In this document: piece after piece, positions 1-30,015 of the stretch | Numbering within the stretch: the first letter of the stretch is position 1 | Layout: each line of letters opens with the position of its first letter | NCBI GenBank assembly: GCA_044892525.1 | Contig: CM097885.1 | Coordinates: 3,164,001-3,228,000 of the forward strand | DNA: 64,000 nucleotides | Direction of reading: 5' to 3' | Source of the DNA: Schmidtea polychroa | Taxonomy: Eukaryota | Notes under the pieces: model-generated | Database searches by the model: none | The model's input: the letters and a program-made list of their open reading frames with translations, nothing else | What the model was told of the DNA's origin: nothing | Made by a program: the position numbers and the translations under genes

Positions 1-207
1 GAGTGACTTTGGGAGAAGATTTCATTCGATTTGGAAGAAGCAATCCTTTGCAGAAAAAGTATATTAGATTTGGAAGAAGACCATATTCATTTAATTAATA
101 TGTAAATATTTCTGATCTTAATTCATTATTGTCATTTGTTATGGGGAAATACAAACTAGTGACCGACCAATATGTATTTGCATTGTTAGCGTCTCTTTGT
201 TGTTTGC

Positions 208-394
<187 letters not shown>

Positions 395-13366: not shown

Positions 13367-13794
13367 ATTATTTTTATTTTTATTCAAGAGATCAGTTAAA
13401 ATTTTGCAACGTTTAGACTTTTGACCATAAAGTTGTCCATGAATACAAAATGTTAGGTCTGATCGACTCACAGGACCGCGAATATGTAGGTCTAGGGCAA
13501 TGGTTCCTAACCAGTGTTCCGGGAATATGGTCCAAATGTCCCGCGAAATTTCAATTTTAATTGTATTGAAAATTAGAAACTTAAGAAAGATACGAAAACA
13601 AAAAATCGTTAAATTTGAATTTTCTACTAGCAAAGCTGGCCTATCATTTTGTATTTATTACATGTGTTTCATTTCATATCATTCATTTTTATGTATAAAT
13701 AATTTTGTATGTTTTTTTTCTTTGAAGGGAAATTTTTTTTTTTTTTTTTTAAATCGTTGGTTGTGAAAGAATCATTTTATTTTTGATCATCGAT

Positions 13795-14915
13795 AGTAGT
13801 AGTAGGATGTGTCCCCGCCAGATCAGGTCCCCTCCAGATCACATATACCCCTCCCCCCCCCGGGAAAAAATTTTATTTTTTTTTAGAACGATGCCTAATA
13901 TTTTTAGAACTATTACGTAATCAATGCCTAATATTTTTAGAACGATGCCTAATATTTTTAGAACTATTACGTAATTTTTTTTTAAATTAAGTGATCCAGC
14001 GGGGACCTACTTTTTTTCTTCCCAAAAGTAATGTTCCCGCCAACAAATTTTATTAACCGATACCTCATCTTAAAGCTCAGTCCAAGACCTTTCGAATGAG
14101 CTATAGGTATCTTATATATCTTTAATAGTTTTAATGTTATTAACAATTGATGACCACCATCTTTTCAACGTTAAATTATTATTATTTTTCAAAATATTAT
14201 TAAGTGATCCAGCGGGGACCTACTTTTTTTCATCCCAAAAATTATTGTTCCCGCCAACATATTATATTGATCGATAGCTTATTTTAAAGCTCTGTGCAAG
14301 AACTTTCTAATGAGATATAGATTTTTATCATACGATGACTCATCACATTTTTAGAACAAAGACAATGACTCATCACATTTTTAGAATGATGTCTAATATT
14401 TTAGAATGATGCCAAATATTTTTAGAACGATGTCTATTATTTTTAGAATGATGTCTAATATTTTAGAATGATGCCTAATATTTTTAGAATGATTACGTCA
14501 TAATTTTAGAACGATGTCTATTATTTTTAGAATGATGCCTAATATTTTTAGAATGATTACGTCATACTTTTAGAACGATGCCTAATATTTTAGAATGATG
14601 TCTATTATTTTTAGAACGATTACGTCATACTTTTAGAACGATGCCTAATATTTTTAGAATGATGCCTAATATTTTTAGAACGATTACGTCATACTTTTAG
14701 AACGATGCCTAATATTTTTAGAACTAATACGTAATCAATGCCTAATATTTTTAGAACGATGCCTAATATTTTTAGAATTAATAATTTTGTTTTAATTATC
14801 GATGATTATATAATTTGTTTAAATCATTGATTATATAATTCTTCTGTTTTAATTATAGAATACGTAATAATATAATTTTGTTTAAATCGTTGATTACATA
14901 TTATTATTTTCTAAG

Positions 14916-15001
<86 letters not shown>

Positions 15002-15010
15002 GCATATATA
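13795..15010 (+). repeat. Left terminal inverted repeat of the Polinton
   Basis: Near-identical reverse complement of 28598-29965, apart from copy number of an internal repeat of about 21-22 bp and (ATT)n length. Confidence 0.96.
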
Positions 15011-15173
15011 CTCCTAGTTTATCCGACAAAATATTCTGTCCCCCTATGGGTACTGCACACAAATGTACTACTCACATTCAACAAGTCACAAGGGTACTGT
15101 TCACAAAATTACTGGTAAAAATATTCAAGACAAAACTTTCTAAATTCTAAATATTATTCTTTAAATATACACT
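15011..15173 (+). repeat. Inner, more diverged inverted repeat (left), partner of 28435-28597
   Basis: TATATA|CTCCTAGTTTATCCGACAAAATATTCTGTCCCCCTATGGG...; about 14 mismatches to its partner in the first 89 nt (manual count). Confidence 0.9.
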
Positions 15174-15417
15174 AAAATTTATTAACACATTCACATTCAT
15201 CATCTCCACAGTTCATAACATTTTCAACAACATGATCTATACAATCCCTATATACACACGGTTCAGTATCCGTAAATTCCTCCATAGGTTCATCAATTTC
15301 TTGAATGCTTTCCTCATCATCTTGAGTGTTTTCTTCATCTGTTTCAACATTAAAATAACTGTGAAAGTCTAGCAGACATAATTTTCCAAATTGGAGAATA
15401 CACATCATTATTATCAA
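15172..15417 (-). CDS. Small acidic, Cys-containing Polinton ORF (possibly a spliced or frameshifted terminal exon)
   Basis: ETDEENTQDDEESIQEIDEPMEEF...CGDDECEC; overlaps the end of ORF 15350..15769; preceded by an acceptor-like CTTTCACAG. Confidence 0.45.
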   Translation of the reverse strand: MIIMMCILQFGKLCLLDFHSYFNVETDEENTQDDEESIQEIDEPMEEFTDTEPCVYRDCIDHVVENVMNCGDDECECVNKF

Positions 15418-15769
15418 CTTTATATCCTTGGATTGTAATTGTTATATACCAATTTTCGTTTTCTTTGAAACTGATTTCATCAAAGGAATCATAAAATTTT
15501 GCATATCGGTTGTTGAAAAATGCATTTTGATTGCATGATAGATTTGTATTCAACCTTTTGAAAACATCATCTATGGTTTTAATATCTAACATTGAAAGCG
15601 TGCCGGTTAAGAATTGAAATTGGGTAGGAATTAGCTTGATCGGTGACACCAATTTCATATTGATTTCTTCTTTTAAAAAATACATTTTGTAGTTGTGGAA
15701 CATTTGAACAGGTTGTACAAGTTCTGGAACTACTTTTGGTTTTTCAGTGCTTGAAATTTTCTTGGTCAT
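15350..15769 (-). CDS. Polinton accessory protein, 139 aa, possibly an OB-fold ssDNA-binding protein
   Basis: ATG-initiated ORF with TATAAAA and a CCAAT box upstream. The C-terminal beta-strand pattern FYD...WYITITIQGYK...SPIWKIMSA is reminiscent of viral SSBs; the function is a guess. Confidence 0.6.
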   Translation of the reverse strand: MTKKISSTEKPKVVPELVQPVQMFHNYKMYFLKEEINMKLVSPIKLIPTQFQFLTGTLSMLDIKTIDDVFKRLNTNLSCNQNAFFNNRYAKFYDSFDEISFKENENWYITITIQGYKVDNNDVYSPIWKIMSARLSQLF

Positions 15770-15877
15770 TGTGAATTATGATTAAAATGAAATGGTACAG
15801 GGTTTTTATACCTTTGACAATTGTTTATCATCCAATCAGATTGCAGTATGTTTTTGTTTTAATTGAATGATAAATAA

Positions 15878-16342
15878 TTAATTAAGTGATAATAAAAAAT
15901 CTAAAAATTCTTTTCCTTCAATTATTGATTTAATTTCAGATATGATATTATCAACTATACATTTGTAATCAATATTTTTTATTCCAAGAATTACTATCTT
16001 ACCGCTAGCGAATATATTTACACACAGAGGGTTATATTTTATATATCTCAAAGCTGGAAATAATTCTGGTTCATAAAAGCATGGTATTAATTTAGCTAAT
16101 TTATTTAAATTACAAGAAAAACCTATATCGGAAGTTATGGTTATCGATTGTATTTCTAAATCATAAACATTATATTCACTAGCTTTGATTATTTCCTTAC
16201 ACCCCATAATTCTACATTTACCAGTTTTGAAATATATTATTGGATATTTATTACTTCTATTGATAAGTTGTTGTGGTTTCCCTATTGGAAATACCATTTT
16301 TGATACATCAGTTTTTGCCCTGTAATTTATATTTGAAAGCAT
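15878..16342 (-). CDS. TATA-binding protein (TBP)-like protein, 154 aa, Polinton-encoded
   Basis: Repeat 2 IQSITITSDIGFSCNLNKLA...YEPELFPALRY...VNIFASGKIVILG matches TBP IQNMVGSCDVKFPIRLEGL...YEPELFPGLIY...LLIFVSGKVVLTG. Repeat 1 is shortened (SNIN...IIYFKTGKCRIMG). Confidence 0.92.
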   Translation of the reverse strand: MLSNINYRAKTDVSKMVFPIGKPQQLINRSNKYPIIYFKTGKCRIMGCKEIIKASEYNVYDLEIQSITITSDIGFSCNLNKLAKLIPCFYEPELFPALRYIKYNPLCVNIFASGKIVILGIKNIDYKCIVDNIISEIKSIIEGKEFLDFLLSLN

Positions 16343-16446
16343 TTTAATGAAATAATTTTAAAAACTTTGATATATATAGGTATTTAAAAACAGAGTTCAT
16401 TTAAATTATCAATATAAACAATAATTATATAGTTTAAATTTAAAAA

Positions 16447-17085
16447 ATGGAATTACGAAATGATGCAGTATACCAAATCGTTGGTCCAAGTGGTAGCGGG
16501 AAAACTTTATTTGTTTGTAAATTACTAAAATCAAATTTGTTTAAAACAAAATTCAACAATATTTATTGGCATAGGGGCGCCGACGAAGAACACGGATTGA
16601 CGCAATCAAGTTTCTGTCAGTTGAAAAACATGAAAATAGTAAAGGGCTTTGATAAAAACTGGTCAAGTCGTTTGAAGAAAGATGATGTCATCATTATCGA
16701 TGATTTGTATCAAGAAGCCAATAAAGAAAAGGACTTTAATAATTTATTCACAAAAATCAGCAGACATGTTGGTGTAACAGTTATTTTCATAACACAAAAT
16801 CTATTTCATCAAGGTGGTGCACATCGAACACGTAATTTAAATGTACAATATTTAGTTATTTTCAAGAATCCTAGAGATGCAACTGTCATTGATTTTCTTG
16901 GACGACAAGCATACCCTAATAACCGTAATTTTCTTATCAGTGCATTTCAAGATGCCACGAAAATACCGCATGGGTATATATTTCTCGATTTCACACAACA
17001 ATGCCCTGATGATATACGGGTAAAAACAGATATTTTCAACCCAAAAGGTGCCATGGTATATAAACAAAGTTCAAAACAAAGTTGA
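16447..17085 (+). CDS. A32/FtsK-like genome packaging ATPase
   Basis: Walker A GPSGSGKT, Walker B VIIIDD, ISRH arginine motif, FITQN. Confidence 0.95.
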   Translation: MELRNDAVYQIVGPSGSGKTLFVCKLLKSNLFKTKFNNIYWHRGADEEHGLTQSSFCQLKNMKIVKGFDKNWSSRLKKDDVIIIDDLYQEANKEKDFNNLFTKISRHVGVTVIFITQNLFHQGGAHRTRNLNVQYLVIFKNPRDATVIDFLGRQAYPNNRNFLISAFQDATKIPHGYIFLDFTQQCPDDIRVKTDIFNPKGAMVYKQSSKQS

Positions 17086-17098
17086 AAACATATAAATC

Positions 17099-17593
17099 AT
17101 GTTTTCAAAAACAAGGATATCGGGTAAAAAACAACCAAAAGTTCCACCAACAACTAGTTATACTCCATCTAAAGATCTTATTACAGAAAATTTTCCTGCA
17201 ATGAATCTTATTTCGAAAAATCCTAAACCTAAACCTAAAAGTAAAACCACTAAGAAAGTAAAAGTTGTTAAAAATCATCGGAGTTTCCCGTTTTTCAATA
17301 CATTGTTAAAGGCACCAAGTATGAAAAGAAACAGTATTTTGCAATCTTTTCCAAATTATGTTGTCGATGATTTACTCGATATTATACTTAAAGTAGTCAA
17401 AGGCAAGATTAAAATCAGTAAATCTAAAAAGCAATTATTGAGTAAACATAGGAAACCTTTGCTATCATTAGTAAATAATAAAAATCGTCAACAAATGAGA
17501 AAAATTATATATAAACAACAAGGGGGATTTATCGGTGCATTGATACCTTTAGCAATATCATTATTAGGTGGAATAATAGGAAGTCGATCATAA
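17099..17593 (+). CDS. Basic virion core-like protein with a C-terminal QQGG/F hydrophobic tail (probable protease substrate)
   Basis: Lys-rich; ends KQQGGFIGALIPLAISLLGGIIG, resembling the GGF-hydrophobic tail of adenovirus pX-like precursors. Confidence 0.75.
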   Translation: MFSKTRISGKKQPKVPPTTSYTPSKDLITENFPAMNLISKNPKPKPKSKTTKKVKVVKNHRSFPFFNTLLKAPSMKRNSILQSFPNYVVDDLLDIILKVVKGKIKISKSKKQLLSKHRKPLLSLVNNKNRQQMRKIIYKQQGGFIGALIPLAISLLGGIIGSRS

Positions 17594-17596
17594 ACA

Positions 17597-17824
17597 ATGG
17601 GTGCTAATCCTTCATTACCAGACATTAAATTTAATATTAAATCTTCTTGTTGTAATGGAGAAGATTTGGACGAACCCGGAAGACGAAGCCGGTTTTGGTG
17701 GAGTGGCAAAATTAAGGAAAAGAGTTCCGAATTCGAAAAAGGAAACTCAGAAGTGGTTATCAGACCAGCTTGCGTACAGTTTGAACAAACCAATGCGGAA
17801 ACGATTCCCAACAAGAACATATAA
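17597..17824 (+). CDS. Small, putatively myristoylated protein overlapping the integrase 5' end
   Basis: ATG 3 nt after the previous stop in ACAATGG context; MGANPS fits MGxxxS; SSCC motif. Confidence 0.5.
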   Translation: MGANPSLPDIKFNIKSSCCNGEDLDEPGRRSRFWWSGKIKEKSSEFEKGNSEVVIRPACVQFEQTNAETIPNKNI

Positions 17825-18710
17825 AACATATGGAATAAATGATTTATGGCAAATGGATTTGATGGAGATGATACCCTATTCGAAAATTAACAATGGGTAT
17901 AAATATATTTTAACATGTATTGATGTATTCAGTCGGTTTGCCCGAGCAATACTCGTCAAGGCAAAATCTGCAGATGAAATGTCCAAAGCTGTTAATCATT
18001 TATTTAAAGATGGACATCCTAAAAACTTGCAAACTGATTTAGGTATTAATATTATTATTTTTATTATTATTATTATTATTTTAGGTAAAGAATTCTACAA
18101 CAGTAAAGTCAAGCAAATCCTCAATAAATTGAAAATAAACCATTACTCAGTACATTCTCAATACAAAGCTGCTCATGTTGAAAGATTTAACCGAACTTTG
18201 AGAGATAGATTAAAGAAATTATTCGTGCATCAAGGTAATAAAAAATGGGTATTGGTTTTACCAAAAATAATAACCAGTTATAATCACTCATCACATCAAG
18301 GACTGAATGGATTAAGGCCGATTGATATCACGTCAAAAACAATCTATTCTAAAAAACCTGAAAAAATTACAAAACCGAAATATAAAGTAGGTGACCATGT
18401 TAGAATTAGTAAAATTAGTGCATCACCATTTATTAAAAATTTCGATACAAATTGGAGTGATGAAGTCTTAGTAATTTCAAAAATAAATACTAAACAGAAT
18501 CCTGTAATGTATGTCATCAAAGACAATGATAACAATATTGTACAAGGAAAATTTTATGAACAAGAATTACAAGTTATTCCTCCCCCAAAAGTATTTAGAA
18601 TTCAGAAAATATTGAAAACTAAAAATAAAGGCAAGGATAAACAATACTATGTCAAATGGCATGGTTATCAAAACCCATCATGGATATCAGAAAAGGACCT
18701 AGTAAAGTGA
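17655..18710 (+). CDS. Retroviral-type (c-)integrase with C-terminal chromodomain; 42-nt intron 18043-18084; about 337 aa spliced
   Basis: DDE triad in WQMDL, LQTD, HVERFNRTL; splicing restores TDLGKEF; chromo-like YYVKWHGYQNPSWI. Likely start MEKIW at 17655. Confidence 0.95.
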   Translation: MEKIWTNPEDEAGFGGVAKLRKRVPNSKKETQKWLSDQLAYSLNKPMRKRFPTRTYKTYGINDLWQMDLMEMIPYSKINNGYKYILTCIDVFSRFARAILVKAKSADEMSKAVNHLFKDGHPKNLQTDLGINIIIFIIIIIILGKEFYNSKVKQILNKLKINHYSVHSQYKAAHVERFNRTLRDRLKKLFVHQGNKKWVLVLPKIITSYNHSSHQGLNGLRPIDITSKTIYSKKPEKITKPKYKVGDHVRISKISASPFIKNFDTNWSDEVLVISKINTKQNPVMYVIKDNDNNIVQGKFYEQELQVIPPPKVFRIQKILKTKNKGKDKQYYVKWHGYQNPSWISEKDLVK

Positions 18711-19723
18711 ATTTTTATACTATTTTACCAAGCAATAGTTGCCCGCTTATTCATCCAGATAATCAAGCCAGTAAATTCATGGTCAATCTCCAGAATCCGA
18801 TTTCTTTAAATGGTGACTGGGAAGTTGCACTGCAAGATTTTACATTCGTGTACAATACATTCCCATTTTATAGTCAATGTAAGATTGATTTCAAAAGGAA
18901 TGCTATGAAAACATGTAGTGGTATCTTTATTATCAGTAATTATGATAAAACATATCATATTCCGAATCAAATATTAGATCAGCATTGCACTATGTTTTAC
19001 AAAGATGGATTAAATATCAGTTGTGATTTTAAACCATTTACAATAACATTCGAATATATTGAAGATGCCAGACGAATGGGTTGCAATAAGTTGAAAAATG
19101 AAGTTATGGAAACAGAATATTTATTACGCTTTGATCTATTTGAAGCAAACAGTGTAATGAGAGAAGAAATCAAAATTTCAGTGTCGTATAATAATGAAGT
19201 TGAAGAATCATTCACCTTCGCTGACGAATTATATATTGATAAACTTGATGTGTTACTTAAATATTTAAAGTATAATTGTTCACACATATTTAAAAGTTTG
19301 GATATTGTGAAAGATTTGTTATTTACCTTCAGTTTGAATGATGACATTTGCGAAGTTACATTTGATAAAAATTTGACAAATACACTTGGATTAGAGAAGC
19401 AGCAATATCGGGAAAAATCGGCTGGTATACGTAAACCAAGAATACTTGAACATCATCAACAAATGTTCATATATACTAATATTATTGAGCCTATAATAGT
19501 TGGTGATTCCAGTGTTCCTCTATTGAAATCGGTGTGGATTGGAAAATATGAACATGATGAAGTTGTCAATATAAATATAGATAATCCCATGTATTTACCA
19601 ATTTCAAGCTCATGTATAAACAATATAGAAATAAATATTCGTGACGATAGTGGAAAACTTATAAACTTCCCAAAAGACTCAAAAACTCATTTGACACTAC
19701 ATTTTCGTAAAGTAGATGGCTAA
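18656..19723 (+). CDS. Minor capsid (penton-like) protein
   Basis: FYTILPSNS...F.VNLQNPISLNGDWEVAL and C-terminal MFIYTNIIEP.IVGDS..PLL...IEINIRDDSG...LTLHFRK are typical of Polinton minor capsids. The start may be 18680. Confidence 0.88.
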   Translation: MAWLSKPIMDIRKGPSKVNFYTILPSNSCPLIHPDNQASKFMVNLQNPISLNGDWEVALQDFTFVYNTFPFYSQCKIDFKRNAMKTCSGIFIISNYDKTYHIPNQILDQHCTMFYKDGLNISCDFKPFTITFEYIEDARRMGCNKLKNEVMETEYLLRFDLFEANSVMREEIKISVSYNNEVEESFTFADELYIDKLDVLLKYLKYNCSHIFKSLDIVKDLLFTFSLNDDICEVTFDKNLTNTLGLEKQQYREKSAGIRKPRILEHHQQMFIYTNIIEPIIVGDSSVPLLKSVWIGKYEHDEVVNINIDNPMYLPISSSCINNIEINIRDDSGKLINFPKDSKTHLTLHFRKVDG

Positions 19724-20078
19724 TTCCGATATTATTAGTATGTATAGTGATAGCCAATCTGGTGGTGAATTACCATATTTTATTGGTAAACAGTACGGAT
19801 CAGGTTGGTTAAAAACAATAGGGAGATTTGCACTTCCTATTCTTAAACGTATTGGTAGTTTTGGCATGAAAACTGCAAAAGATGTGATTATGAATGAACA
19901 GAAAATATTACCATCCCTAAAAACAAATGCTTTAGCGGAGTTAGGGAAGGTTCTACCCGGAGTTGCTGGTATGTTTCAAAAAGATACACCTCCAGTCCCA
20001 GCTCCAAAACGTAAAGGGCATGGAATATCGCGTATAAACAAACGAATGAAAGGACATGGAACTATATTTGCAAAATGA
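19716..20078 (+). CDS. Small virion protein with amphipathic helix (pVI-like membrane-active precursor)
   Basis: QSGG and QYGSG candidate cleavage sites followed by amphipathic WLKTIGRFALPILKRIG; basic tail; lies just before the major capsid gene. Confidence 0.72.
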   Translation: MANSDIISMYSDSQSGGELPYFIGKQYGSGWLKTIGRFALPILKRIGSFGMKTAKDVIMNEQKILPSLKTNALAELGKVLPGVAGMFQKDTPPVPAPKRKGHGISRINKRMKGHGTIFAK

Positions 20079-21298
20079 TTTGTGGTAAATCCGAATTATG
20101 TATATTTGATAGACCATCGCCCCAGGCAGTAATAGAATTTGGTGCCTTTGAGGAAGTTTTTCCTATGAATTCAATTACTGATAGTAGAAATGATATCGAG
20201 TTTTATATTAATGGTTCGCAAACTGAATATTTAGATTTGAACGATACTTTATTGACTGTTCAGATCAAGGTTGTAGATAAAGATAGAAAGGTTTTGGATG
20301 CCAATGCAGATGTATTACCAAACAATTTCATGTTTCATACTCTGTTTAAAGATGCAGTGTTGGGATTTAATAATATCAAGATTGAGGGTGGAAATAATAC
20401 ATTCATTCACAAGGCTTTGATAGAAACTATTTTAAATTACAATTCAGATACTAAAAATACCTGTCTTACACCTATGGGTTATGCAGCAGCAGATGATGAA
20501 AGAAAAAAGTGGGTTAAAGGTTCAAAAGTATTCACTATGTGCTCATCATTACAACTTGATTTTTTGGATCAACCGAAATATTTACTACCGGGAGTTAATA
20601 TACATATTAGACTGAAAAGGTCCGATTCTGCATTGTCTCTTACTAGTGCAACTGGTGCACCAATATGTCAATTAGTTGATGCAAAATTATTGGTGAGAAG
20701 AGTTCGAGTAGACCCGTCAGTATTAGCTGGTCATCAATTGGGGCTTAATTCAAAACATGCAATTTATCCTTTAAAAACAAAGGAAATTGTACAATTTGCT
20801 ATTGCTAAAGGTGCTTCATCATTCTATAAAGAACAAATATTTGGTGACAGAAGAATGCCTAATTTTATTCTGGTAACATTTCAAAGTGAAACGCAATATA
20901 ATGGATCGTATACTGCTTCCAGCTCAATTTTCAAAAATTTTGGTGTTACTTCATTGACTTTATCGAAAAATACTGATTATAGAGAAACATATACTCAAGA
21001 TTTCGAGAATGATAATTACTGTGCGACATATATGCAGAGTATTGTTAGAAATCTGGGTTATTTAGATAAAAACTTGAATTGCGGAATAACTCTTGAAGAA
21101 TTTAAAAGCAAATACCCATTTTTCACATTTGTTCTAGCTCCCGATTTTGATTTAAATCAGAGTCAATTACCACAAAACGGGAATTTACGACTGGATATAA
21201 AGTTTGCAAAGGCCATTACTGAACCAGTACATGTTATAATATATGGAGTATTTGAAAATGAAGTTCAAATTACTGCAAATAGAACCGTGCTAGTATAA
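20075..21298 (+). CDS. Major capsid protein (double jelly-roll, hexon-like)
   Basis: N-terminal KSELCIFDRPSPQ, IEFYI...EYLDLNDT, QPKYLLPGV.IHIRL, GNLRLDIKFA motifs of Polinton MCP; 407 aa. Confidence 0.92.
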   Translation: MICGKSELCIFDRPSPQAVIEFGAFEEVFPMNSITDSRNDIEFYINGSQTEYLDLNDTLLTVQIKVVDKDRKVLDANADVLPNNFMFHTLFKDAVLGFNNIKIEGGNNTFIHKALIETILNYNSDTKNTCLTPMGYAAADDERKKWVKGSKVFTMCSSLQLDFLDQPKYLLPGVNIHIRLKRSDSALSLTSATGAPICQLVDAKLLVRRVRVDPSVLAGHQLGLNSKHAIYPLKTKEIVQFAIAKGASSFYKEQIFGDRRMPNFILVTFQSETQYNGSYTASSSIFKNFGVTSLTLSKNTDYRETYTQDFENDNYCATYMQSIVRNLGYLDKNLNCGITLEEFKSKYPFFTFVLAPDFDLNQSQLPQNGNLRLDIKFAKAITEPVHVIIYGVFENEVQITANRTVLV

Positions 21299-21710
21299 AT
21301 GTATACAGAAACACCAAAAAGTTGTCATGGAGTAAGGTTTTCAATACTGTTTAATTTATTAAAGTAGTTCTGTTCAGGTCAATAGAATTGGAAAACAGAT
21401 ATTGGGAAATGAATTTGTAGGAGTTTTTCCTCTCGATAAAATCCCATATTTGAGCAATAATCAAGCCATAATCGTCAATACTCAATCGTCTCATCTTGGT
21501 GGAAAACATTGGATTGCTATATATGTGAAACCTAGTAATATATTCGTGTTCGATCCTATGGGTTTCTATTACCCTGCTTTGTTGGTATCAAAACTACAAA
21601 CAATGGGGAAACCTATTGTATATAATAAAACAATGTTTCAAAATCCCTTGACACAAACATGCGGTCAACATTGTTTAGCTTGGTTGTTGTATAAAAAATT
21701 TGATGATTAA
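21299..21710 (+). CDS. Adenain-like cysteine protease; exons 21299-21331 and 21378-21710 (about 121 aa)
   Basis: GKHW, FDPMG and Q...TCGQHC give the His/Asp/Cys triad. The track ORF lacks an ATG; a 46-nt GTAAGG...TTCAG intron links the ATG directly after the MCP stop in frame. Confidence 0.88.
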
Positions 21711-21734
21711 TAAATGTATTTTGTATCCTTTGTT

Positions 21735-22035
<301 letters not shown>

Positions 22036-22119
22036 TTTAATTAAATTTATTTTGAAAAATATTATTATCTAACTACACAAACATTGTGCATGCACAAAGA
22101 TATGCAATCCCATTTGATA

Positions 22120-22212
22120 CCATTTGATTGGCTGATAGAGGAAAAAGTATTCAGGAATGTGTCTTAATTCTGATTGGTTGAGACATGGAAATATTCCTGT
22201 TCTATATAAACA
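22120..22212 (+). promoter_or_regulatory. Candidate polymerase-gene promoter: two inverted CCAAT boxes and a TATA box
   Basis: GATTGG at about 22126 and 22172, TATATAAA at about 22203, roughly 60 nt before ATG 22269. Confidence 0.55.
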
Positions 22213-22268
22213 TTGACAATTCTAAAATTCGTCATAATTATTCTTAAATTTACAAATTTTAAATTAAA

Positions 22269-25200
22269 ATGGACGCTGATTTACACAAAATTTTGAATGC
22301 CATGTTGATGGGTGAAAATGGTAAATTATTTAGTTATTATTATTATTATTTTTATTTATTATTTTAGAGAATTTATGGTACCAAGTGACTGAAGATGATT
22401 CAATTTTGAATGTTGATAGGATTTTCGGTAAATTTAAATATTTTAATTTTTATGAAATTATTATTTTATTTAGAACCTATTATAATTAGCGACGATGATG
22501 ATGTCGTGTTTATTGGGCAAAATGATGCCCCGGATAATGATGCCTTATTTGTTAGGCAAAACAATGTTTTTAATGAACAAAGTAAATTTATTTTATTTTA
22601 GTATATTATTTTTTAAAAATCATTTTAGTGTTTAATGTTGACATGGACGCTGAAATCGATGTTCCAATTAATAATGATTCTATTGAGGAGATGAATAATG
22701 CACTGACTTCTATCGATGAGTTGAATTATGTGGATAATACAATCGAGGAGCTTGTTAATGTGGATAATGCCCTCACTTCTATTGAGGAGGTTGCTGATAA
22801 TGAATCAGATTCCGACATGGAATCACGATGTTAGTATTTATTTATTTTTATATATTTATTTATTTTTTAAAAACCTTGTAAATTTCTTAAATACTTTTTA
22901 AACATTTTCTTTAAAAACTTATTTATAAAAACTTATTATGAAAATGAAGAAAATATTATGATGAAATTGAAAATGTTATGTTGACTAAATGATGAAAATA
23001 TTATGATGATGAAGAAAATGATGAAAATAATATGATGAAGAAAATGATGAAAATATTATGATGAAGAAAATGATGAAAATATTATGATGAAGAAAATGAT
23101 GAAAATATTATGATGAAGAAAATGATGAAAATATTATGATGAAGAAAATGATGAAAATATTATGATGAAGAAAATGATGAAGAAAATGTTTAAAAAGTAT
23201 TTAAGAAACAATAGTTTTAAAATATTCCTTGTAGTTTGCAATGAGCAACTACATTAGTTAAAATAATAATAATAATAATAATAATAATATTAAAAATAGT
23301 AATAAAAATATATCTTGTAGTCTGCAGTGAGCATGCAGCTACATATCTCTTTTATTATGATTGCCCCAATAAATGTAGTCTGCAGTGAGAATGCAGCTAC
23401 ATATCTCTTTTATTATGTTTGCCCTAATAAATGTAGTCTGCAGTGAGCATGCAGCTACATATCTCTTTTATTATGATTGCCCCAATAAATGTAGTCTGCA
23501 GTGAGCATGCAGCTACATATCTCTTTTATTATGTTTGCCCTAATAAATGTAGTCTGCAGTGAGCATGCAGCTACATATCTCTTTTATTATGATTGCCCCA
23601 ATAAATGTAGTCTGCAGTGAGCATGCAGCTACATATCTCTTTTATTATGATTGCCCCAATAAATGTAGTCAGCAGTCAGCTGCATCAAATATTTATTACA
23701 TAATAAATACCATTTATTAAATATAGTCTGCATGCAGCTGCATCAAACTATTTATTACGTAATACATACCCTTTATTAAATGTGTCTAAATGCAGCTGCA
23801 ACAAACTATTTATTACGTAATAATTAACCCTTATTAAATATAGTCTGCATGCAGCTGCATCAACTATTTATTATGTAATAATTATAATCTTTAAATGTAA
23901 TCTGCATGCAGCTGCATCAATAATGATAATAATGATAATAATAATAATAATAATAATAATAAAATCACACATTTATAGTTTACAAGACTTTATTAATATA
24001 AATACAATTTCATGATTAATATTAATTGATAAATATAATTAACAGGCAAATTATATCCACATTACTGCCAGGCTTCAACTGGTCACTCAAATTTATGTCA
24101 CAAAGTGATGAAAAAATATTATGGTCGTAAATTTTATGGCATCAAGTACTATATATGCCCAATATGCGAGACTTCCCATAGCATTAAATATTTAGAGTTT
24201 TACAGTATACATAAATCCCATTTAAATCAGTTCTCTTTAAATAAAAAGGATTTATTTAACAAATTGCGAAATACCGCAAAACCTATAATTAAAACTAATG
24301 TAAATAATACAAAACCTGTAAATAATATTACAAAACCTGTAAATAATAATACAAAACCTGTAAATAATATTACAAAACCTGTAAATAATAATAATACAAA
24401 ACCTGTAAATAATATTACAAAACCTGTAAATAATAATACAAAACATGTAAATAATATTACAAAACCTGTAAATAATAATAATACAAAACCTGTAAATAAT
24501 ATTACAAAACCTGTAAATAATAATATAAAACATGTAAATAATATTACAAAACCTCTAATTAATAATGTTATTAATGTAAATAATAATTTAAAAAGACCTG
24601 CTGTTAGTATTGAGTCTGATGCTCCCTCTAAAATTAATAAATTAGAACAAATAACTGTGGTTAATAGTATTCAAGTAGGCGGTTCAGTCGATATTGACGA
24701 TGAACCTGAAATCGAAATTGATTTTAAGGGGGTTCGAAAGAATCTAAGATTTAATGAAGAAAAGGATAACATCGTTCAAATATCCATAACCGATAAAATC
24801 GTTAATAAGTTAAATCATGAAATAAACAGAATGGGGTCGGTGAAAATACAATTCTCTGTTTTGATTCAATTTGAAAAAGATGGTGAAATTAAAGATAATT
24901 TCTTCTCGAATAGGGCAGAGGCTTTTTCAGATAGTTTTCTAAGTGAGGGGGTTCACAAATTAAATAATAAAATAGAAAAATTCGCATATTTGGGTAGTGG
25001 ATGGCGGGTTGTTAAAATCAAAGAAATAGATTTTATATTAACAAAATTTACACATATGAATAGGCTAGCTGGACATAGTTATATCCCCACCCCATCATCT
25101 TTAAATTCTAAAAATGCAATAGTAAACGTTAAAAACACTGATGATATGTGCTTTATATATAGTATTTTAGCACTTTTAAAACGTAATGTCGTACATATAA

Positions 25201-28200
25201 ATAGAAATAGAGTTAGTTCCTATGAAAATTATCTCAACGAGTTAAATTTTGACCCCATTTCCGACTGTCCAATGAAACTATGTGATATTCCTAAATTCGA
25301 GATGAAAAATAAAGATTTAAATTTAGCAATAAATGTTTTAACTTATAGAACGACCCCTGCTAAGCCTTTTGAAAATATAGTTGACGATAATTATATTCCA
25401 CATCATCCTCAATTAGATATTATTCACCGATCTAAGGTTATAGGTGGTGAACCCTTATACTTACTTTTATTGGAAGATGGTGATAATTTTCATTATACTG
25501 CAGTTTTTAATTTGCAAAGATTAATGAACTCGCATCGTAGTAGCTCTTGTAGTGTTCAAATTAAAGTGAACTGGTGCCCCCATTGTCTCAATGGTTTTCG
25601 ACATGAAAAAGCATTTGATATTCACGTTGCCTTATGCAGTAAGAACCAGATAGGTACTACTTTATACACGCTACCCAATGATAAAAATTTAATTTTTCAA
25701 AATTATGCGAAAACCATAACCCCGCCATTCGTGATATATGCAGACTTTGAATCAATTTTACCGGGGGATATAATACACCATCAAAAGCATTTGCCAATAA
25801 CAGCAGGTTTATTATTAATAAATAATTATAATAACTCTAAATTTTATTATGAGTTTGTTGGGGATGATTGTATCTTATCTTTCTTGCGTAAGGTGGAGGA
25901 AATTGCTATGACAATTGTCCTGCCATATTACGAAATTAATGGGAAAAAGCCCATGCAAACCTTGTCTTTCGCTGAAGAGCGGGCCTTTCGTGATTCCAGA
26001 ACCTGCTACCTTTGTAAAAAATTTATTAGAAATAGAGTTAGGGATCATTGCCACTTCTCAGGTAAGTATCTTGGTGCTGCCTGTAGGAAATGTAATGTGT
26101 CTCGGCGAATTCAGAGACAGTTACCTGTGGTTTTTCATAATTTGAGGGGGTATGATCTCCATCATATTTTGAAGTACGGTCTCAATAATTTTCCTTCTTG
26201 GGAATTAAATATTATTCCGACCACTACCGAGAAATTCATCTCTCTCATCGCATACATTAACAAACTGTCTGTTCGTTTTATTGACAGCATGCAGTTTGTT
26301 AATTCGTCTTTAGCAAAAGCAGTTAAGACTCTTTCCGATCTGCCTTTAACTTCTTCTGTTTTTGATGGCGCAATTATTCGAGCCAAAGGTATCTTTCCTT
26401 ATGACTTTGCCACATCTCTTGAGGTTCTGGAATCGACTCTTGAATTGCCACCTATCTGGGATTCTGTGTCTAATGATGAATATGCATTAGCTCAAGTTAT
26501 TTGGACTCAGCAAAACTGCAACAACATGTTAGATTACATGCTAACTTACCTTAAATTAGACGTGTTTCTCCTCGCAGACTATTTCCAACAATTCCGTGCA
26601 AAGGCCATTGCTTACAATGGTCTTGAGCCTCTTAATTTCTATGGCATTCCCGGTATGTCATGGGCCTCTGCGCTTATGACATTAACGGAACCCATTGAAC
26701 TTTTGCAGGACATGGAAATGTTTAATTTCTATGAAGGAGGGATACGGGGTGGGTTAACATTTGTTAACAAACATTATGTTGCAAGTTCTGAAGACACAGA
26801 ACTCTTGTATATTGATATTAATAACTTGTATGGTTGGGCCTTAAGCCAAAATCTGCCTTATGCTGACTTTGTTTGGGTGTATGATGATCTTGATTCTGTC
26901 TTGAATGAATGTATGAATGCTGATATCGATAACCTTCCATATGGTTATACTATGGAGGTAGATATCGATATCCCTGATTGTTTGCATGACTTTCTGAATG
27001 ATTTTCCTCTTGCTCCTGAAAAGATGTGCCCGCCAAATTCTAAAGTTGAGAAGCTGATGCTCACGCATTGGCCGAAGAAGAACCATGTTCTTCATTGGCG
27101 ACTTCTCAAGTTGTATATAGAATTGGGGGCTATTATTAAAAATGTACATAGAGCAATCAAATTTAAGCATGCACCCATTTTTAAATCTTACATAGACAAA
27201 AACACTAATTTGAGAGCCAATTCGACATGCGAATTATATAGGGATCTATACAAATTATTTAATAATAGTCTGTATGGGAAATCCGTAGAAAACCTTAAAA
27301 AACGGATGAATTTGAGGTTATGCAATTCATCTGAAAAGATGATTGTATATGCTTCAAAGCCGACTTTCAAGAAATCTATCAAAATTGATGATGACTTGAT
27401 TGCTGCACATCTATATAAGGATTCTATATGTTTAGACAGGCCTAGTTACATTGGCCAAACGGTGCTAGACCTGTCTAAACTGAGGATGTACCAGTTACAG
27501 TATAAAGAATTGGCTAAATATAGAAATGAATTTAAATGTGAGATAAATATCGTTGCCGGTGACACTGACTCCTTTTTCTTAGAGATAAACCATTGTAAGC
27601 TTGACACTCTTTTGCCGGCAATGATTCGTGACAATCTTTTAGACACTTCCAACTATGACCCTGCACATCCCTTATACTCTAGAAACCTTGATTCGGTGAT
27701 AGGTAAATTTAAAGATGAAAGTAAAGGTCTAGGGTATAAGGAATGGGTTTTCTTAAGACCCAAGTGCTATAGTTTGTTAGGGGCTAAAGATCATTTAAAA
27801 GCAAAAGGAGTCAGGTTAATAGGTACAGAAATTAGGCACGATTCATATTTAGAATGCTACAATAACAACGTAGTATTTTCTGTGCCACAAAGTAGGATAG
27901 GGACGCGGAACCATCAATTGTACACATTTAAAAACAATAAAATCGCGTTGACAAACAACGACGACAAGCGGTTTTGGGTGGGGAAAAATTCCAGTCTCGC
28001 ATTTGGTCATTATTTAGCACTAGATGATATAAATGATGATCAAATATTTGAAGAAGTTGGGCCACTATTCGGAGGATTAAGTCCAGATTTTGTTTCTGGT
28101 GATGAGGAAGTGGGTCCACTTTTCAATGGTTTAAGTCCAGATTTCGATTCTGGTGATGATCCTAATGATAAAAGAGATATAGATGATATTTTATTGTCAG

Positions 28201-28205
28201 ACTAA
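22269..28205 (+). CDS. Protein-primed DNA polymerase B; predicted exons 22269-22320, 22368-22427, 22474-22581, 22629-22829, 24046-28205 (about 1526 aa)
   Basis: ExoI YADFES, ExoII FHNLRGYD, pol motifs YIDINNLYG, KLFNNSLYGK, AGDTDS; endonuclease VII-like RDHCH..GKYLGAACRKCN. The large exon is certain. The 5' exons are predicted from four GT-AG introns that are all phase 1. Confidence 0.9.
22990..23190. repeat. 26-bp tandem repeat ATGATGAAGAAAATGATGAAAATATT
   Basis: About 7 copies visible, in the predicted long pPolB intron. Confidence 0.9.
23316..23920. repeat. 58-bp palindromic minisatellite (6-7 copies plus about 4 degenerate copies)
   Basis: Unit ATGTAGTCTGCAGTGAGCATGCAGCTACATATCTCTTTTATTATG(A/T)TTGCCC(C/T)AATAA, starts 58 nt apart (23373, 23431, 23489, 23547, 23605). 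Confidence 0.93.
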
Positions 28206-28434
28206 ACTGTGATAAATGTTAATATATCTTTAATAAAACGTTTCTTCTACATTGTTGTATTATCTAAAATTTTTATTGAAAACTTGTTATAGTTTTCACA
28301 TTTCTTACAAATGTTAAACACTTGTATAAATATATTTATTAATATTGATAAAGTTTTTATAAATCATGTTTAACTATTGAAAGAAATTTTTATTTGAAAT
28401 GTATGTATGAGCTCACCACTACATATATGAGTTG

Positions 28435-28597
28435 AGTGTACATTTAAAGTATAATATTTAGAATTTAGAAAGTTTTACCTTGAATATTTTTACCAGTACC
28501 TTTGTGAACAATAACCATGTGACTTGTTGAGTGTGAGTAGTACCCTTGCTAGCAATACCCATAGGGGGTCAGAATATTTTGTCGGATAGACTCGGTG
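28435..28597 (-). repeat. Inner, more diverged inverted repeat (right)
   Basis: Reverse complement TATATA|CACCGAGTCTATCCGACAAAATATTCTGACCCCCTATGGG... matches 15011-15173. Confidence 0.9.
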
Positions 28598-28606
28598 TAT
28601 ATATGC

Positions 28607-28701
<95 letters not shown>

Positions 28702-29965
28702 CTTAGAAAATAATAATATGTAATCAACGATTTAAACAAAATTATATTATTACGTATTCTATAATTAAAACAGAAGAATTATATAATCAATGATTTAAAC
28801 AAATTATATAATCATCGATAATTAAAACAAAATTATTAATTCTAAAAATATTAGGCATCGTTCTAAAAGTATGATGTAATCATTCTAAAAATATTAGGCA
28901 TCGTTCTAAAAGTATGACGTAATCATTCTAAAAATATTAGGCATCATTCTAAAAATAATAGACATCGTTCTAAAATTATGACGTAATCATTCTAAAAATA
29001 TTAGGCATCATTCTAAAATATTAGACATCATTCTAAAAATATTAGGCATCGTTCTAAAAATATTTGGCATCGTTCTAAAAATATGACGTAATCAATCTAA
29101 AAATATTAGGCACCGTTCTAAAAATATTAGGCATCGTTCTAAAAATAATAGACATCGTTCTAAAAATATTTGGCATCGTTCTAAAAATATGACGTAATCA
29201 ATCTAAAAATATTAGGCATCGTTCTAAAAATATGATGAGTCATTGTCTTTGTTCTAAAATTATGACGTAATCATTCTAAAAATATTAGGCATCATTCTAA
29301 AATATTAGACATCATTCTAAAAATAATAGACATCGTTCTAAAAATATTTGGCATCATTCTAAAATATTAGACATCATTCTAAAAATGTGATGAGTCATTG
29401 TCTTTGTTCTAAAAATGTGATGAGTCATCGTATGATAAAAATCTATATCTCACTAGAAAGTTCTTGCACAGAGCTTTAAAATAAGCTATCGATCAATATA
29501 ATATGTTGGCGGGAACAATAATTTTTGGGATGAAAAAAAGTAGGTCCCCGCTGGATCACTTAATAATATTTTGAAAAATAATAATAATTTAACGTTGAAA
29601 AGATGGTGGTCATCAATTGTTAATAACATTAAAACTATTAAAGATATATAAGATACCTATAGCTCATTCGAAAGGTCTTGGACTGAGCTTTAAGATGAGG
29701 TATCGTTCAATAAAATTTGTTGGCGGGAACATTACTTTTGGGAAGAAAAAAGTAGGTCACCGCTGGACCAATTAATTTAAAAAAAATTACGTAATAGTTC
29801 TAAAAATATTAGGCATCGTTCTAAAAATATTAGGCATTGATTACGTAATAGTTCTAAAAATATTAGGCATCGTTCTAAAAAAAAAATAAAATTTTTCAGA
29901 CCGGGGGGGGGGTATATGTGATCTGGAGGGGACCTGATCTGGCGGGGACACATCCTACTACTACT
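28598..29965 (-). repeat. Right terminal inverted repeat of the Polinton
   Basis: Reverse complement of 13795-15010, about 150 bp longer because of extra internal repeat units. Confidence 0.96.
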
Positions 29966-30015
29966 GATAGTCAAGTGATTTTTTCTAAAAGTTGTATTTT
30001 TTTGTTTTTAAATCA

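Follow-up and report, generated by a model that had tools for sequence, protein, structure and literature searches.

A compact TBP-like protein encoded by a Schmidtea polychroa Polinton and a positioned TATA-like motif in the same elements

A Polinton in the genome of Schmidtea polychroa encodes a compact, 154-residue homologue of the TATA-binding protein (TBP), and a strand-specific TATA-like motif, TATAAACAA, precedes the packaging and capsid-side genes of the same element. The data support the compact TBP as a gene of the Polinton itself, conserved under purifying selection across the whole clade. The strand-specific, positioned motif in these Polintons is new here. To our knowledge, Polintons are usually described as wholly reliant on host transcription, with their regulation essentially unknown; the sequence data suggest that this element partly runs its own transcription programme.

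The Polinton carrying the TBP-like gene is about 16.2 kb long (13795-29965) in the window, by which we mean the whole 64-kb stretch of DNA that was analysed. The element is a Polinton/Maverick: a protein-primed family B DNA polymerase (pPolB), an rve integrase, long terminal inverted repeats (TIRs), an A32-type ATPase and an adenain protease are all present. Its features, from left to right, are as follows.

13795-15173, no strand: left TIR, about 1.38 kb, with internal tandem repeats; terminus AGTAGTAGTAGG
15172-15417, minus strand: small Cys-rich ORF, 81 aa, no Pfam family, C-terminal CGDD.C.C
15350-15769, minus strand: orf139, predicted OB fold resembling viral ssDNA-binding proteins; adjoins the TBP-like gene in many loci
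15770-15877, minus strand: orf139 upstream region, with ATTGG (CCAAT box) at 15832-15836, TATAAAAA at 15803-15810 and TCATT at 15786-15790
15878-16342, minus strand: compact TBP-like protein, 154 aa, ATG start (Pfam TBP, AF2 model)
16343-16446, no strand: divergent intergenic region between the TBP-like gene and the ATPase gene (sequence motifs)
16447-17085, plus strand: A32-like genome-packaging ATPase (Pfam Pox_A32, 2e-7)
17099-17593, plus strand: orf164, conserved in related loci
17655-18710, plus strand: rve-type integrase with C-terminal chromodomain (Pfam rve 1.1e-7, Chromo 5e-4)
18656-19723, plus strand: orf355, assigned by synteny, no Pfam family
19716-20078, plus strand: orf120, conserved small protein, present in related loci
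20075-21298, plus strand: orf407, putative double-jelly-roll major capsid protein (ESM Atlas neighbour cluster)
21363-21710, plus strand: adenain-type cysteine protease fragment (Pfam Peptidase_C5, 9.7e-7), a 115-aa open frame lacking an ATG in this copy
24108-28205, plus strand: protein-primed family B DNA polymerase, 1365 aa (DNA_pol_B_2, 7.2e-28, C-terminal 834 aa)
28435-29965, no strand: right TIR (blastn against the left end)

In the blastn comparison of the left end with the reverse-complemented right end, 13795-14778 pairs with 29965-28989 at 93.6% and 14343-15173 with 29265-28435 at 89%. A first repeat scan had given shorter TIRs (14012-14521 and 29242-29751). The AGT repeats at the termini leave the 6-bp target-site duplication ambiguous; GATAGT (13792-13797 and 29966-29971) flanks the ends only with the left terminus moved one AGT unit inward. 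The ATPase gene adjoins the TBP-like gene and runs in the opposite direction. The integrase scores 32.4 bits with Pfam rve, just under the cut-off of 32.6, also matches rve_3 and Chromo, and is 34-64% identical to the integrases of related loci. The DNA_pol_B_2 match of the polymerase spans 25701-28202; the protein carries an N-terminal tandem repeat and an Endonuclease VII-like motif (Endonuclease_7, 5.7e-4), and its C-terminal part gave no match among PDB sequences. orf407 matched neither a Pfam family nor a PDB sequence, and the major capsid protein is a lead only, from an ESM Atlas neighbour cluster named 'Double jelly roll-like domain' in which 65% of the members have PF21738 (score 0.98). 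orf355 is a conserved Polinton gene, possibly for a minor capsid or penton protein. The protease fragment is followed by a simple-repeat tract (21.7-22.05 kb), and the CGDD.C.C motif of the 81-residue ORF is also found in an ORF of 122-132 residues after the TBP-like gene of subfamily B.

The AF2 model of the orf139 product (pLDDT 89) was compared using VIA with ASFV CP312R (Z 7.3), DUF2815 (7.1), Enc34 SSB (6.9) and T7 gp2.5 (6.9), Z values below 8 being moderate; the best Foldseek match is also Enc34 SSB (E 0.03). On this model, orf139 is likely to be a replication SSB. The elements upstream of orf139 resemble host-type promoter elements and would serve as such. A role for orf139 as a partner replacing the helices lost from repeat 1 of the compact TBP (see below) was considered and rejected, given an OB-fold model similar to viral SSBs, with moderate scores.

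The original prediction had described an intronless 154-residue ORF inside the TIRs, with a conserved second TBP repeat, a shortened first repeat and three of the four DNA-intercalating Phe residues of TBP; each of these points is borne out. The ORF has no internal stop, and no intron is required to read it. Pfam TBP (PF00352) matches it with an E value of 5e-15 and 55.5 bits, well above the curated cut-off of 22.9 bits, in a single stretch (residues 62-125) that corresponds to the second repeat. A profile of the compact TBP family matches the TBPs of the PDB with a best E value of 4.6e-24, with little difference between archaeal and eukaryotic proteins (4.6e-24 to about 1e-18). Aligning the family (74 sequences) with canonical TBPs (22 sequences) by hhalign gave a probability of 99.65% and an E value of 4.2e-25 over 149 columns, the whole length. 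Residues 1-142 match both repeats, and the gaps fall at the expected positions of helices H1 and H2 of repeat 1. F38, M46, E93, F95, N109 and F111 are invariant in all 74 sequences. TBP has four intercalating Phe residues, two per repeat; the compact protein keeps three (F38, F95 and F111), the predicted number being correct because the first canonical position is taken by the nearly invariant Pro23 (family alignment and hhalign). The set of four Phe residues is a mark of TATA-box kinking rather than of membership of the TBP family, as TLF/TRF2 lacks the Phe pairs too. The E-P-E-L stirrup sequence is present, with E91 nearly invariant, P92, E93 invariant and L94.

The structure prediction agrees with the profile matches. 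The AF2 model of the compact TBP (pLDDT 97, pTM 0.86) has only strands in residues 1-48 and one short helix at 54-57. All 44 PDB matches found by Foldseek at E<=0.001 are TBPs. The top 38 rows of the VIA comparison are likewise all TBPs (Z 10.5-12.7), after which the score falls to 6.2. Human and yeast TBP are both matched; with human TBP (7egb_P), the Z score is 12.7 and the rmsd is 2.5 Å for 142 aligned residues (28% identity), pairing model residues 1-142 with human residues 164-337. In the model, the compact TBP is a full TBP saddle of two tandem repeats, with repeat 1 reduced and lacking both H1 and H2; all ten strands of the DNA saddle are retained in the prediction, and the C-terminal repeat is almost canonical. 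Residues in the centre of the minor-groove surface differ from those of cellular TBP, Asn being changed to Ser66 in repeat 2 and Thr to Met46 and Leu119; residue-level contacts were taken from alignments only. Given these substitutions and the lost Phe, TATA-type binding could be weak or absent, as in TLF/TRF2. A complex prediction for the compact TBP with the host TFIIB core (a 169-residue open frame) scored 0.00; run without controls, it is evidence neither way.

The E-P-E-L stirrup of cellular TBP contacts TFIIB, and TFIIA, TAF1, Mot1, NC2 and Brf1 use the surface formed by the repeat-1 helices. A protein that keeps the stirrup and has lost these helices might act as a decoy or dominant negative, titrating TFIIB or occupying host TATA boxes without TFIID or TFIIA assembly and so damping transcription of the host or of competing elements. 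We give this reading little credence. Three of the four DNA-facing Phe residues and other saddle residues are invariant in the 74 sequences, and a pure TFIIB sponge would not need them; a matching, positioned promoter motif is present in the same elements; and a general block of host transcription would presumably be costly for an element with hundreds of genomic copies. A decoy fits the conserved DNA-facing residues less well than does redirection of transcription to the element's own promoters.

The TBP-like gene is not a solitary copy. At least 150 copies scored in the S. polychroa genome are open and 99% identical; a protein search had given 4133 first-look candidates and a DNA search 1282. 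Within this genome, sister subfamilies have the gene at the same place (57-93% identity). Each of the 80 metagenome loci that were fetched encodes a homologue, the identity falling to about 33%. Genes for the ATPase, integrase, PolB or capsid side are present as well in 38 of the 80; Polinton genes accompany the TBP-like gene in 21/24 loci of at least 4 kb and in 10/10 of at least 6 kb. The gene is also found in two unrelated left-arm modules, which have no blastn similarity left of 16412, the position at which similarity to subfamily B starts. A search of IMG/VR with the TBP family returned one locus (33% identity over residues 40-124) without Polinton gene matches, and IMG/VR searches with the ATPase, orf407 and the ATPase alignment found no relatives. 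Between subfamilies, dN/dS of the TBP-like gene is 0.16, 0.20 and 0.31, with dS saturated.

An origin as a host retrocopy was rejected: host TBP loci gave only weak tblastn matches (about 50% over 32-41 residues, E 1e-4), and the intronless two-repeat paralogues of the host (214 and 202 residues) gave no tblastn match to the compact TBP at E<=1e-3. The gene could still be a functionless passenger, a captured fragment of host TBP in neutral decay; Polintons do pick up host genes, and copies within a subfamily are too similar for a meaningful dN/dS. That it is open in every subfamily and in every metagenome locus, at such divergence and with its functional residues invariant, speaks against decay, as do the low dN/dS between subfamilies and the weakness of the host matches, and we regard a passenger as scarcely credible. 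Among the checks named with the original prediction, the Pfam match, the predicted TBP fold, homologues within Polintons and dN/dS, here between subfamilies, came out in its favour; the absence of a fold or profile match, or a one-off decaying retrocopy, is not what was found.

The second line of evidence is the motif. The plus strand has five copies of TATAAACAA between 16413 and 20041, compared with 3.9 occurrences expected for the whole window on both strands. One copy (16413-16421) starts 34 nt before the ATPase ATG, a second (17059-17067), inside the ATPase gene, lies 40 nt before the ATG of orf164, and a third (20033-20041), inside orf120, 42 nt before that of orf407. Upstream of the TBP-like gene, the minus strand has TATATATA (16371-16378) and TCATT (16346-16350). 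In 15 Polinton loci, the gene strand has 89 copies of TATAAAC and the opposite strand 11, where base composition predicts about 30 and 26. An ORF ATG is located at +25 to +60 of 41 of the 89 gene-strand sites; when sites were placed at random 2000 times, the mean was 4.2 and the highest count 13. Positions 8 and 9 of the motif are A in 32 and 31 of the 41 positioned sites, and AA, AG, GA and AC variants were seen within positions 7-9. The motif precedes all seven non-redundant ATPase starts and four of the five orf407 starts. It precedes none of the 39 starts of TBP-like genes, which have TATAWAWR (20/39) and TCAYT (21/39) upstream. The motif is retained across lineages whose proteins are only 27-40% identical. 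Several instances fall inside the coding region of the gene that lies upstream, as with I-N-K in orf120, and some of their conservation could therefore be at the protein level.

Host TBP could read the motif, since TATAAA is itself the core of a canonical TATA box. The compact TBP might then be a real TBP-like factor that acts generally, for example by reinforcing or replacing host TBP at every TATA promoter in the element, including that of its own gene, while YATAAACAA is read by host TBP/TFIID or by a forkhead protein. CATAAA is a known functional variant of the TATA box, ATAAACA within the motif also fits the forkhead core (RYAAAYA), and the near-canonical C-terminal repeat and the canonical TATA before about half of the TBP-like genes would agree with a general role. 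The counts at position 7 are harder to reconcile with it. A/T-rich DNA would favour A or T, yet C leads in the positioned sites (C 41, A 3, G 3, T 5). A strict orientation and a distance of 33-55 nt to the ATG are more in keeping with a core-promoter element than with a site for an upstream factor. Positioned cases begin with T (41) or C (18), and the usual forkhead core, GTAAAC, is positioned in only one of 44 occurrences. Retention of the motif among such diverged lineages also argues against a purely host-read sequence. We consider this reading unlikely, although it carries some weight.

The TBP fold bends DNA, and the gene lies beside the SSB-like OB-fold gene in the left arm, so the protein could belong to a replication module and act as an architectural DNA bender in replication, integration or packaging, for example at TIRs or origins, with no role in transcription. 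TATAAAC is absent from both TIRs, the positioned motif follows ORF starts rather than termini, and the conserved TFIIB-type stirrup would have no obvious role in such a protein; we give a bender very little credence.

In the reading that we favour, with moderate confidence, the compact TBP would be an element-specific initiation factor for the Polinton's own motif promoters, recruiting host TFIIB and Pol II. The protein would itself be made from a host-type promoter consisting of a canonical TATA and the TCAYT initiator-like element. It would then bind the core-promoter motif (T/C)ATAAACAA, which lies some 33-55 nt ahead of the start codons of the ATPase, orf164, the capsid-like gene and other plus-strand genes, and on this motif would recruit TFIIB and Pol II of the host. 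Cellular TBP binds the TATA box with its C-terminal repeat on the 5' half and its N-terminal repeat on the 3' half. In the compact TBP, the canonical C-terminal repeat would recognise TATA, the 5' half of the motif, and the remodelled N-terminal repeat would recognise the unusual 3' half, AACAA. Without the repeat-1 helices, the protein would escape TFIIA, TAF1, Mot1, NC2 and Brf1. DNA binding, motif specificity, TFIIB recruitment, an early/late cascade and escape from regulators are all functions that we infer for the protein. The original prediction had proposed a private basal factor that redirects transcription; its first part, a TBP fold encoded by the Polinton and under purifying selection, stands, the positioned motif is consistent with redirection, and the functional part is kept here as a proposal from sequence. 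Taken furthest, the data may describe a Polinton clade with a two-tier programme, in which a host-type TATA/Inr promoter drives a minimal TBP, stripped of all the repeat-1 helices that bind regulators, and this in turn reads a private word, (T/C)ATAAACAA, before the packaging and capsid-side genes, its remodelled N-terminal repeat specifying the non-canonical 3' half. We put this full scheme forward tentatively.

An element-encoded basal factor and a conserved, positioned promoter word give a testable model for the timing of capsid and packaging gene expression, and may also help to explain how Polintons escape host control. As a natural minimal TBP, predicted to have the saddle and the TFIIB stirrup without the TFIIA/TAF1/Mot1/NC2 surface, it would be useful for dissecting what a TBP needs to nucleate initiation and how TATA-box specificity changes. 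Genes and transcription units of this Polinton clade could also be annotated with the motif as a simple marker.

The compact TBP resembles cellular (eukaryotic and archaeal, PF00352) TBP in its predicted saddle over both repeats and in a near-canonical C-terminal repeat with both Phe residues and E-P-E-L. It differs in being encoded by a mobile element, in its size (154 residues compared with a core of about 180, and no N-terminal tail) and in repeat 1, which lacks H1/H2 and has Pro23 for the first Phe, as well as in the changes at Ser66, Met46 and Leu119. In animals, TLF/TRF2/TBPL1 is a diverged TBP paralogue whose DNA-contact residues are altered but which continues to work with TFIIB and TFIIA. 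The compact TBP is likewise diverged with altered DNA-contact residues; unlike TLF, which has both full repeats and no Phe pairs, it keeps three of the four Phe residues and has a truncated repeat 1.

Giant-virus TBPs serve a virus-encoded RNA polymerase. Those of the Nucleocytoviricota (Heterosigma akashiwo virus, mimivirids and ASFV B263R-like proteins) share with the compact TBP a virus-encoded TBP fold (BFVD Foldseek E 2.6e-7 to 7e-4). They are larger (186-547 residues among BFVD matches at E<=0.001) and only 8-23% identical to it, and, unlike in these viruses, no RNA polymerase gene was found among the ORFs of the 16-kb Polinton.

The only precedent that we found is a gene label, 'TBP', on the maps of MELD viruses in the Fig. 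5 legend of Starrett et al. (2021, Virus Evol 7:veaa055; PMC8502044), so the original prediction, which knew of no characterised example, was nearly right on this point. Like our element, those midsize linear dsDNA viruses or elements with an adintovirus-like PolB have a gene similar to TBP. In the accessible part of that paper, the label is a legend abbreviation that comes with neither a description nor sequence analysis and is connected with no promoter motif, and which element carries it is left unsaid in the text.

A functional analogy may be drawn with the herpesviruses. The late-gene TBP-like proteins of beta- and gamma-herpesviruses (EBV BcRF1, KSHV ORF24 and HCMV UL87) read a variant TATT box. 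These proteins are four to six times larger, act in a six-protein viral complex and have no detectable sequence relationship to the compact TBP; structural matches in BFVD are weak (BcRF1, E 0.012 and TMq 0.35; U58, E 0.0044). The proposed logic would nevertheless be the same, with an element-encoded factor, a variant TATA on late or structural genes and the Pol II of the host. If the two-tier programme is true, the compact TBP would be the smallest natural TBP known and the Polinton counterpart of the late-gene viral TBP of herpesviruses, and would provide a natural case of re-programmed TATA-box specificity in an element amplified to hundreds or more of near-identical copies.

The compact TBP gene lies at 15878..16342 (minus strand), as originally predicted, and encodes 154 amino acids from ATG to stop. 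The Pfam TBP profile (PF00352) matches it with an E value of 5e-15 (55.5 bits, cut-off 22.9) in a single stretch, residues 62-125, which is the second repeat. The AlphaFold2 model, calculated with an alignment of 74 family members as input, has a pLDDT of 97.0 and a pTM of 0.86. Residues 60-153 are modelled as a complete TBP repeat (S1' 60-72, H1' 79-85, four strands, and H2' 127-153); residues 1-48 form strands only (2-10, 25-28, 35-38, and 42-48), followed by a four-residue helix. In the PDB, every Foldseek match at E ≤ 0.001 (44 in all; best, 2z8u of M. jannaschii, 3e-9) is a TBP, and so are the top 38 rows of VIA-align (Z 10.5-12.7; next fold, Z 6.2). Human TBP (7egb_P) aligns with Z 12.7 and an rmsd of 2.5 Å over 142 residues, model 1..142 on chain 164..337. 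Alignment of the family with 22 canonical TBPs by hhalign covers the whole length (149 columns, probability 99.65%, E 4.2e-25), with gaps exactly at H1 and H2 of repeat 1. Alignment and model thus bear out the shortened first repeat of the original prediction.

F38, M46, E93, F95, N109, and F111 are invariant among the 74 members, and P23, R44, G47, S66, E91, P96, and G114-K115 are almost invariant. The invariant set includes the three of four intercalating phenylalanines expected to be kept (F38, F95, and F111), with Pro23 on the first position in the hhalign alignment; the YEPELFP stirrup, with its two glutamates E91 and E93, is intact. In the alignments, the residues that cellular TBP places at the centre of the minor groove are also altered: Ser66 replaces the Asn of repeat 2, and Met46 and Leu119 replace the two Thr.

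The gene is surrounded by a Polinton, bounded by terminal inverted repeats (TIRs) whose termini read AGTAGTAGTAGG.

Features of the Polinton
13795-15173 and 28435-29965, no strand: TIRs of an element of about 16.2 kb
Between the TIRs: A32-like ATPase (Pfam)
Between the TIRs: rve integrase with chromodomain (Pfam)
21363-21710, between the TIRs: adenain-type protease fragment
24108-28205, plus strand: protein-primed PolB (DNA_pol_B_2, 7.2e-28)
Between the TIRs: orf407, no known family; nearest ESM Atlas neighbour a double-jelly-roll cluster

For orf407, a double-jelly-roll protein is a lead only. Further conserved genes between the TIRs have no known family. A possible 6-bp target duplication, GATAGT, flanks the element but is ambiguous. 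In this copy, the protease frame lacks an ATG and continues into a simple-repeat tract of about 350 bp (poly-Ile, Leu, or Asn when translated), followed within 21700-24100 by about 2 kb without long ORFs and then PolB. At its N-terminus, PolB has a tandem peptide repeat (NNTKPVNNITKPV..., about 24250-24530), and its residues 629-664 resemble the Endonuclease VII Cys motif (Pfam 5.7e-4, below cut-off). The conserved neighbour of the TBP-like gene, orf139 (15350-15769, minus strand; homologs, e.g., L044:1788-2135 and L038:1699-2064 in fetched loci), matches no Pfam family. Its model (pLDDT 89) is an OB fold that most resembles those of viral ssDNA-binding proteins, with moderate scores (ASFV CP312R, Z 7.3; T7 gp2.5, Z 6.9; Enc34 SSB, Z 6.9; baculovirus LEF-3, Z 5.7). 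The predicted fold makes orf139 a likely Polinton SSB for protein-primed replication. A 75-aa ORF (17597-17824, plus strand) overlaps the 5' region of the integrase in another frame, its ATG directly following the orf164 stop within the word CATAAACAATG. Its start, MGANPSLPD, is N-myristoylation-like, and MG..(S/T)LP is kept in L114, L036/L037, and subfamily B. One metagenome Polinton (L037:5652-7684) has two tandem orf355 paralogs, 32% and 31% identical to that of the window. Outside the element are an intronless cytochrome P450 (42943-44463, minus strand, Pfam 1.9e-101), a Tc1/mariner-type DDE_3 transposase (55322-56347, plus strand), a hAT dimerisation-domain remnant (35516-36043, minus strand), and a 502-aa ORF (51255-52763, plus strand) with weak zinc-finger and DUF4371 matches.

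A database search gave 97 related proteins, 33-96% identical and mostly of 145-170 residues, all 97 annotated with PF00352. An exhaustive HMMER scan gave 1156 matches at E ≤ 1e-3, 104 of them at E ≤ 1e-10, and these shade into ordinary two-repeat TBPs. In the 781-Mb assembly of its own genome, a protein search found 4133 first-look candidates, and the 150 copies scored are all full-length, open, and 99-100% identical; a DNA search found 1282, the 40 scored all being about 100% identical. The TBP-gene-bearing Polinton has undergone a very large, very recent amplification in this genome, where several Polinton subfamilies lie side by side. The Pfam TBP model also detects many element-type copies with other open-frame lengths, the canonical intron-bearing host TBP (C1:244962231-244962740), and a few intronless two-repeat paralogs. 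Two of the latter, a 214-aa protein at L117 (G000:C2:182632500-182642400) and a 202-aa protein at L119 (G000:C1:195746500-195756400), give no tblastn match to the protein of the element at E ≤ 1e-3; in the L119 paralog, Cys takes the place of the first Phe of repeat 1. No host TBP locus exceeds about 50% over 32-41 residues, which rules out a recent host retrocopy, and the one-off, decaying retrocopy weighed in the original prediction is contradicted by the open copies and by sister subfamilies carrying the gene.

Seven of the 12 fetched genome regions are sister Polintons, with the TBP-like gene at the same position, adjoining the ATPase and divergently oriented from it. One of their proteins is 93.5% identical to that of the window, five are 55-58% (170-aa form), and one is 58% (156-aa form). 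A compact-TBP homolog is encoded in all 80 loci of a metagenome scan, which were probed by tblastn with the other proteins of the window. ATPase, integrase, PolB, or capsid-side genes occur in 38 of the 80; 13 more show only an orf139 neighbour and 29 (mostly 1-3 kb) nothing else. Polinton genes lie beside the homolog in 21/24 loci of at least 4 kb and 10/10 of at least 6 kb. Identity to the window falls from 75% to 27% for the ATPase and to about 32% for PolB; the association of TBP and Polinton is therefore old. IMG/VR holds essentially no members of this Polinton clade; its only relative of the compact TBP, on a 20.3-kb contig (L031), is 33% identical over residues 40-124, and the contig has no match to the other Polinton proteins of the window.

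Between subfamilies, Nei-Gojobori dN/dS of the TBP-like gene is 0.16 (A, that of the window element, versus B), 0.20 (A versus C), and 0.31 (B versus C), rough values since dS is saturated at 1.1-2.4; pairs within one subfamily have too few changes to be read. The TBP-like gene has a dS of 2.35 between A and B, compared with 0.66 for the ATPase, 0.35 for orf120, and 0.24 for orf355. In subfamily B (L112, L113, L116, L122, and L123), the ATPase is 93-95% identical to that of the window and the TBP-like protein 55-58%. Subfamily B lacks orf139 and has no nucleotide similarity left of 16412; blastn similarity begins only there, within the TBP-ATPase spacer. The dS contrast and the start of similarity indicate that the left arm is a swapped module with its breakpoint at 16412. 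The TBP-like gene is present in both versions of the arm, an argument that the element depends on it.

When the 120 nt preceding start codons were compared across loci, one word, TATAAACAA, was conspicuous. It occurs five times on the plus strand of the window element (16413, 17059, 17510, 19615, and 20033), with 3.9 expected in the whole 64 kb on both strands. It starts 34 nt before the ATG of the ATPase, 40 nt before orf164, and 42 nt before orf407. Over 15 Polinton loci (the window element and 14 others), TATAAAC is found at 89 sites on the gene strand and at 11 on the other (about 30 and 26 expected from composition), and is absent from the TIRs of the window element. The ATG of an ORF of at least 70 aa lies at +25..+60 of 41 of the 89 (random mean 4.2, sd 2.1, maximum 13 in 2000 trials). 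The seventh base is specific (positioned TATAAAC 41, TATAAAA 3, TATAAAG 3, and TATAAAT 5, in DNA of 28-44% GC). The first is T (41) or C (18) and seldom A (4) or G (3); A occupies position 8 in 32/41 and position 9 in 31/41 sites. Less probably, host TBP or a forkhead protein may be the reader of the motif; GTAAAC is positioned in 1 of 44 occurrences. The motif's nucleotides lie in the non-coding ATPase upstream region, at the 3' end of the ATPase, where they are read as Y-K-Q, and at the 3' end of orf120, where they are read as I-N-K. This speaks for a DNA-level signal, with coding constraint contributing at some sites.

With near-duplicates removed, the motif precedes 7/7 ATPase and 4/5 orf407 starts and none of 39 TBP-like gene starts. 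Upstream of the latter, a canonical TATAWAWR lies at -70..-20 in 20 cases, TCAYT within the final 30 nt in 21, and a CCAAT box in 12.

Upstream elements in the window
TBP-like gene: TATATATA at 16371-16378; TCATT at 16346-16350
orf139: ATTGG, TATAAAAA, TCATT
PolB: TATAAATA, TCACT

A second class of TBP-like-gene promoters (L033, L043, L048, L051, L065, L076, L078, and L081-L083) has no canonical TATA and shares two elements, TTGTTT(T/A)A(A/C)T near -55 and ATCATAATT immediately 5' of the ATG; its TTGTTTA, read as the reverse complement, is similar to the TAAACAA stretch of the plus-strand motif. By their upstream sequences, the left-arm and replication genes (TBP-like, SSB-like orf139, and PolB) resemble ordinary Pol II genes. 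For the ATPase and capsid-side block, we infer a private TATA variant.

When cellular TBP is bound to a TATA box, its C-terminal repeat covers the 5' half of the site, and its N-terminal repeat covers the 3' half. In the compact TBP, the C-terminal repeat is canonical, as is the 5' half of the motif (TATA); the N-terminal repeat departs from the canonical form, and so does the 3' half (AACAA). From these matched halves, we propose a role for the compact TBP as an initiation factor that is specific to the element and acts at YATAAACAA promoters. It would bind those of the element, and its retained stirrup would recruit TFIIB. The surfaces of cellular TBP for TFIIA, TAF1, Mot1, NC2, and Brf1 are the repeat-1 helices, and their loss would leave the compact TBP blind to all five. 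Less probably, the protein may be a decoy or have an architectural role.

The original prediction knew of no characterised example. In the main texts of openly accessible papers, neither a Polinton TBP family with a truncated repeat nor the TATAAACAA motif is described, and that statement holds except for a TBP label in the legend of Fig. 5 of Starrett et al. (PMC8502044), for MELD viruses with adintovirus-like PolB; the legend gives no discussion and does not specify the carrier element. Excerpts of a Cymbomonas paper (PMC10675990) place sporadic TBP genes in mirusvirus-like elements, not Polinton-like viruses, and excerpts of PMC10558129 list Polintons among piRNA-repressed planarian transposons and mention TATA boxes separately. 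Giant-virus TBPs match the model structurally, but they are longer and only 8-23% identical. The closest functional precedent would be the herpesvirus late-gene TBP-like protein, which reads a TATT box, although its structural matches to the compact TBP are weak.
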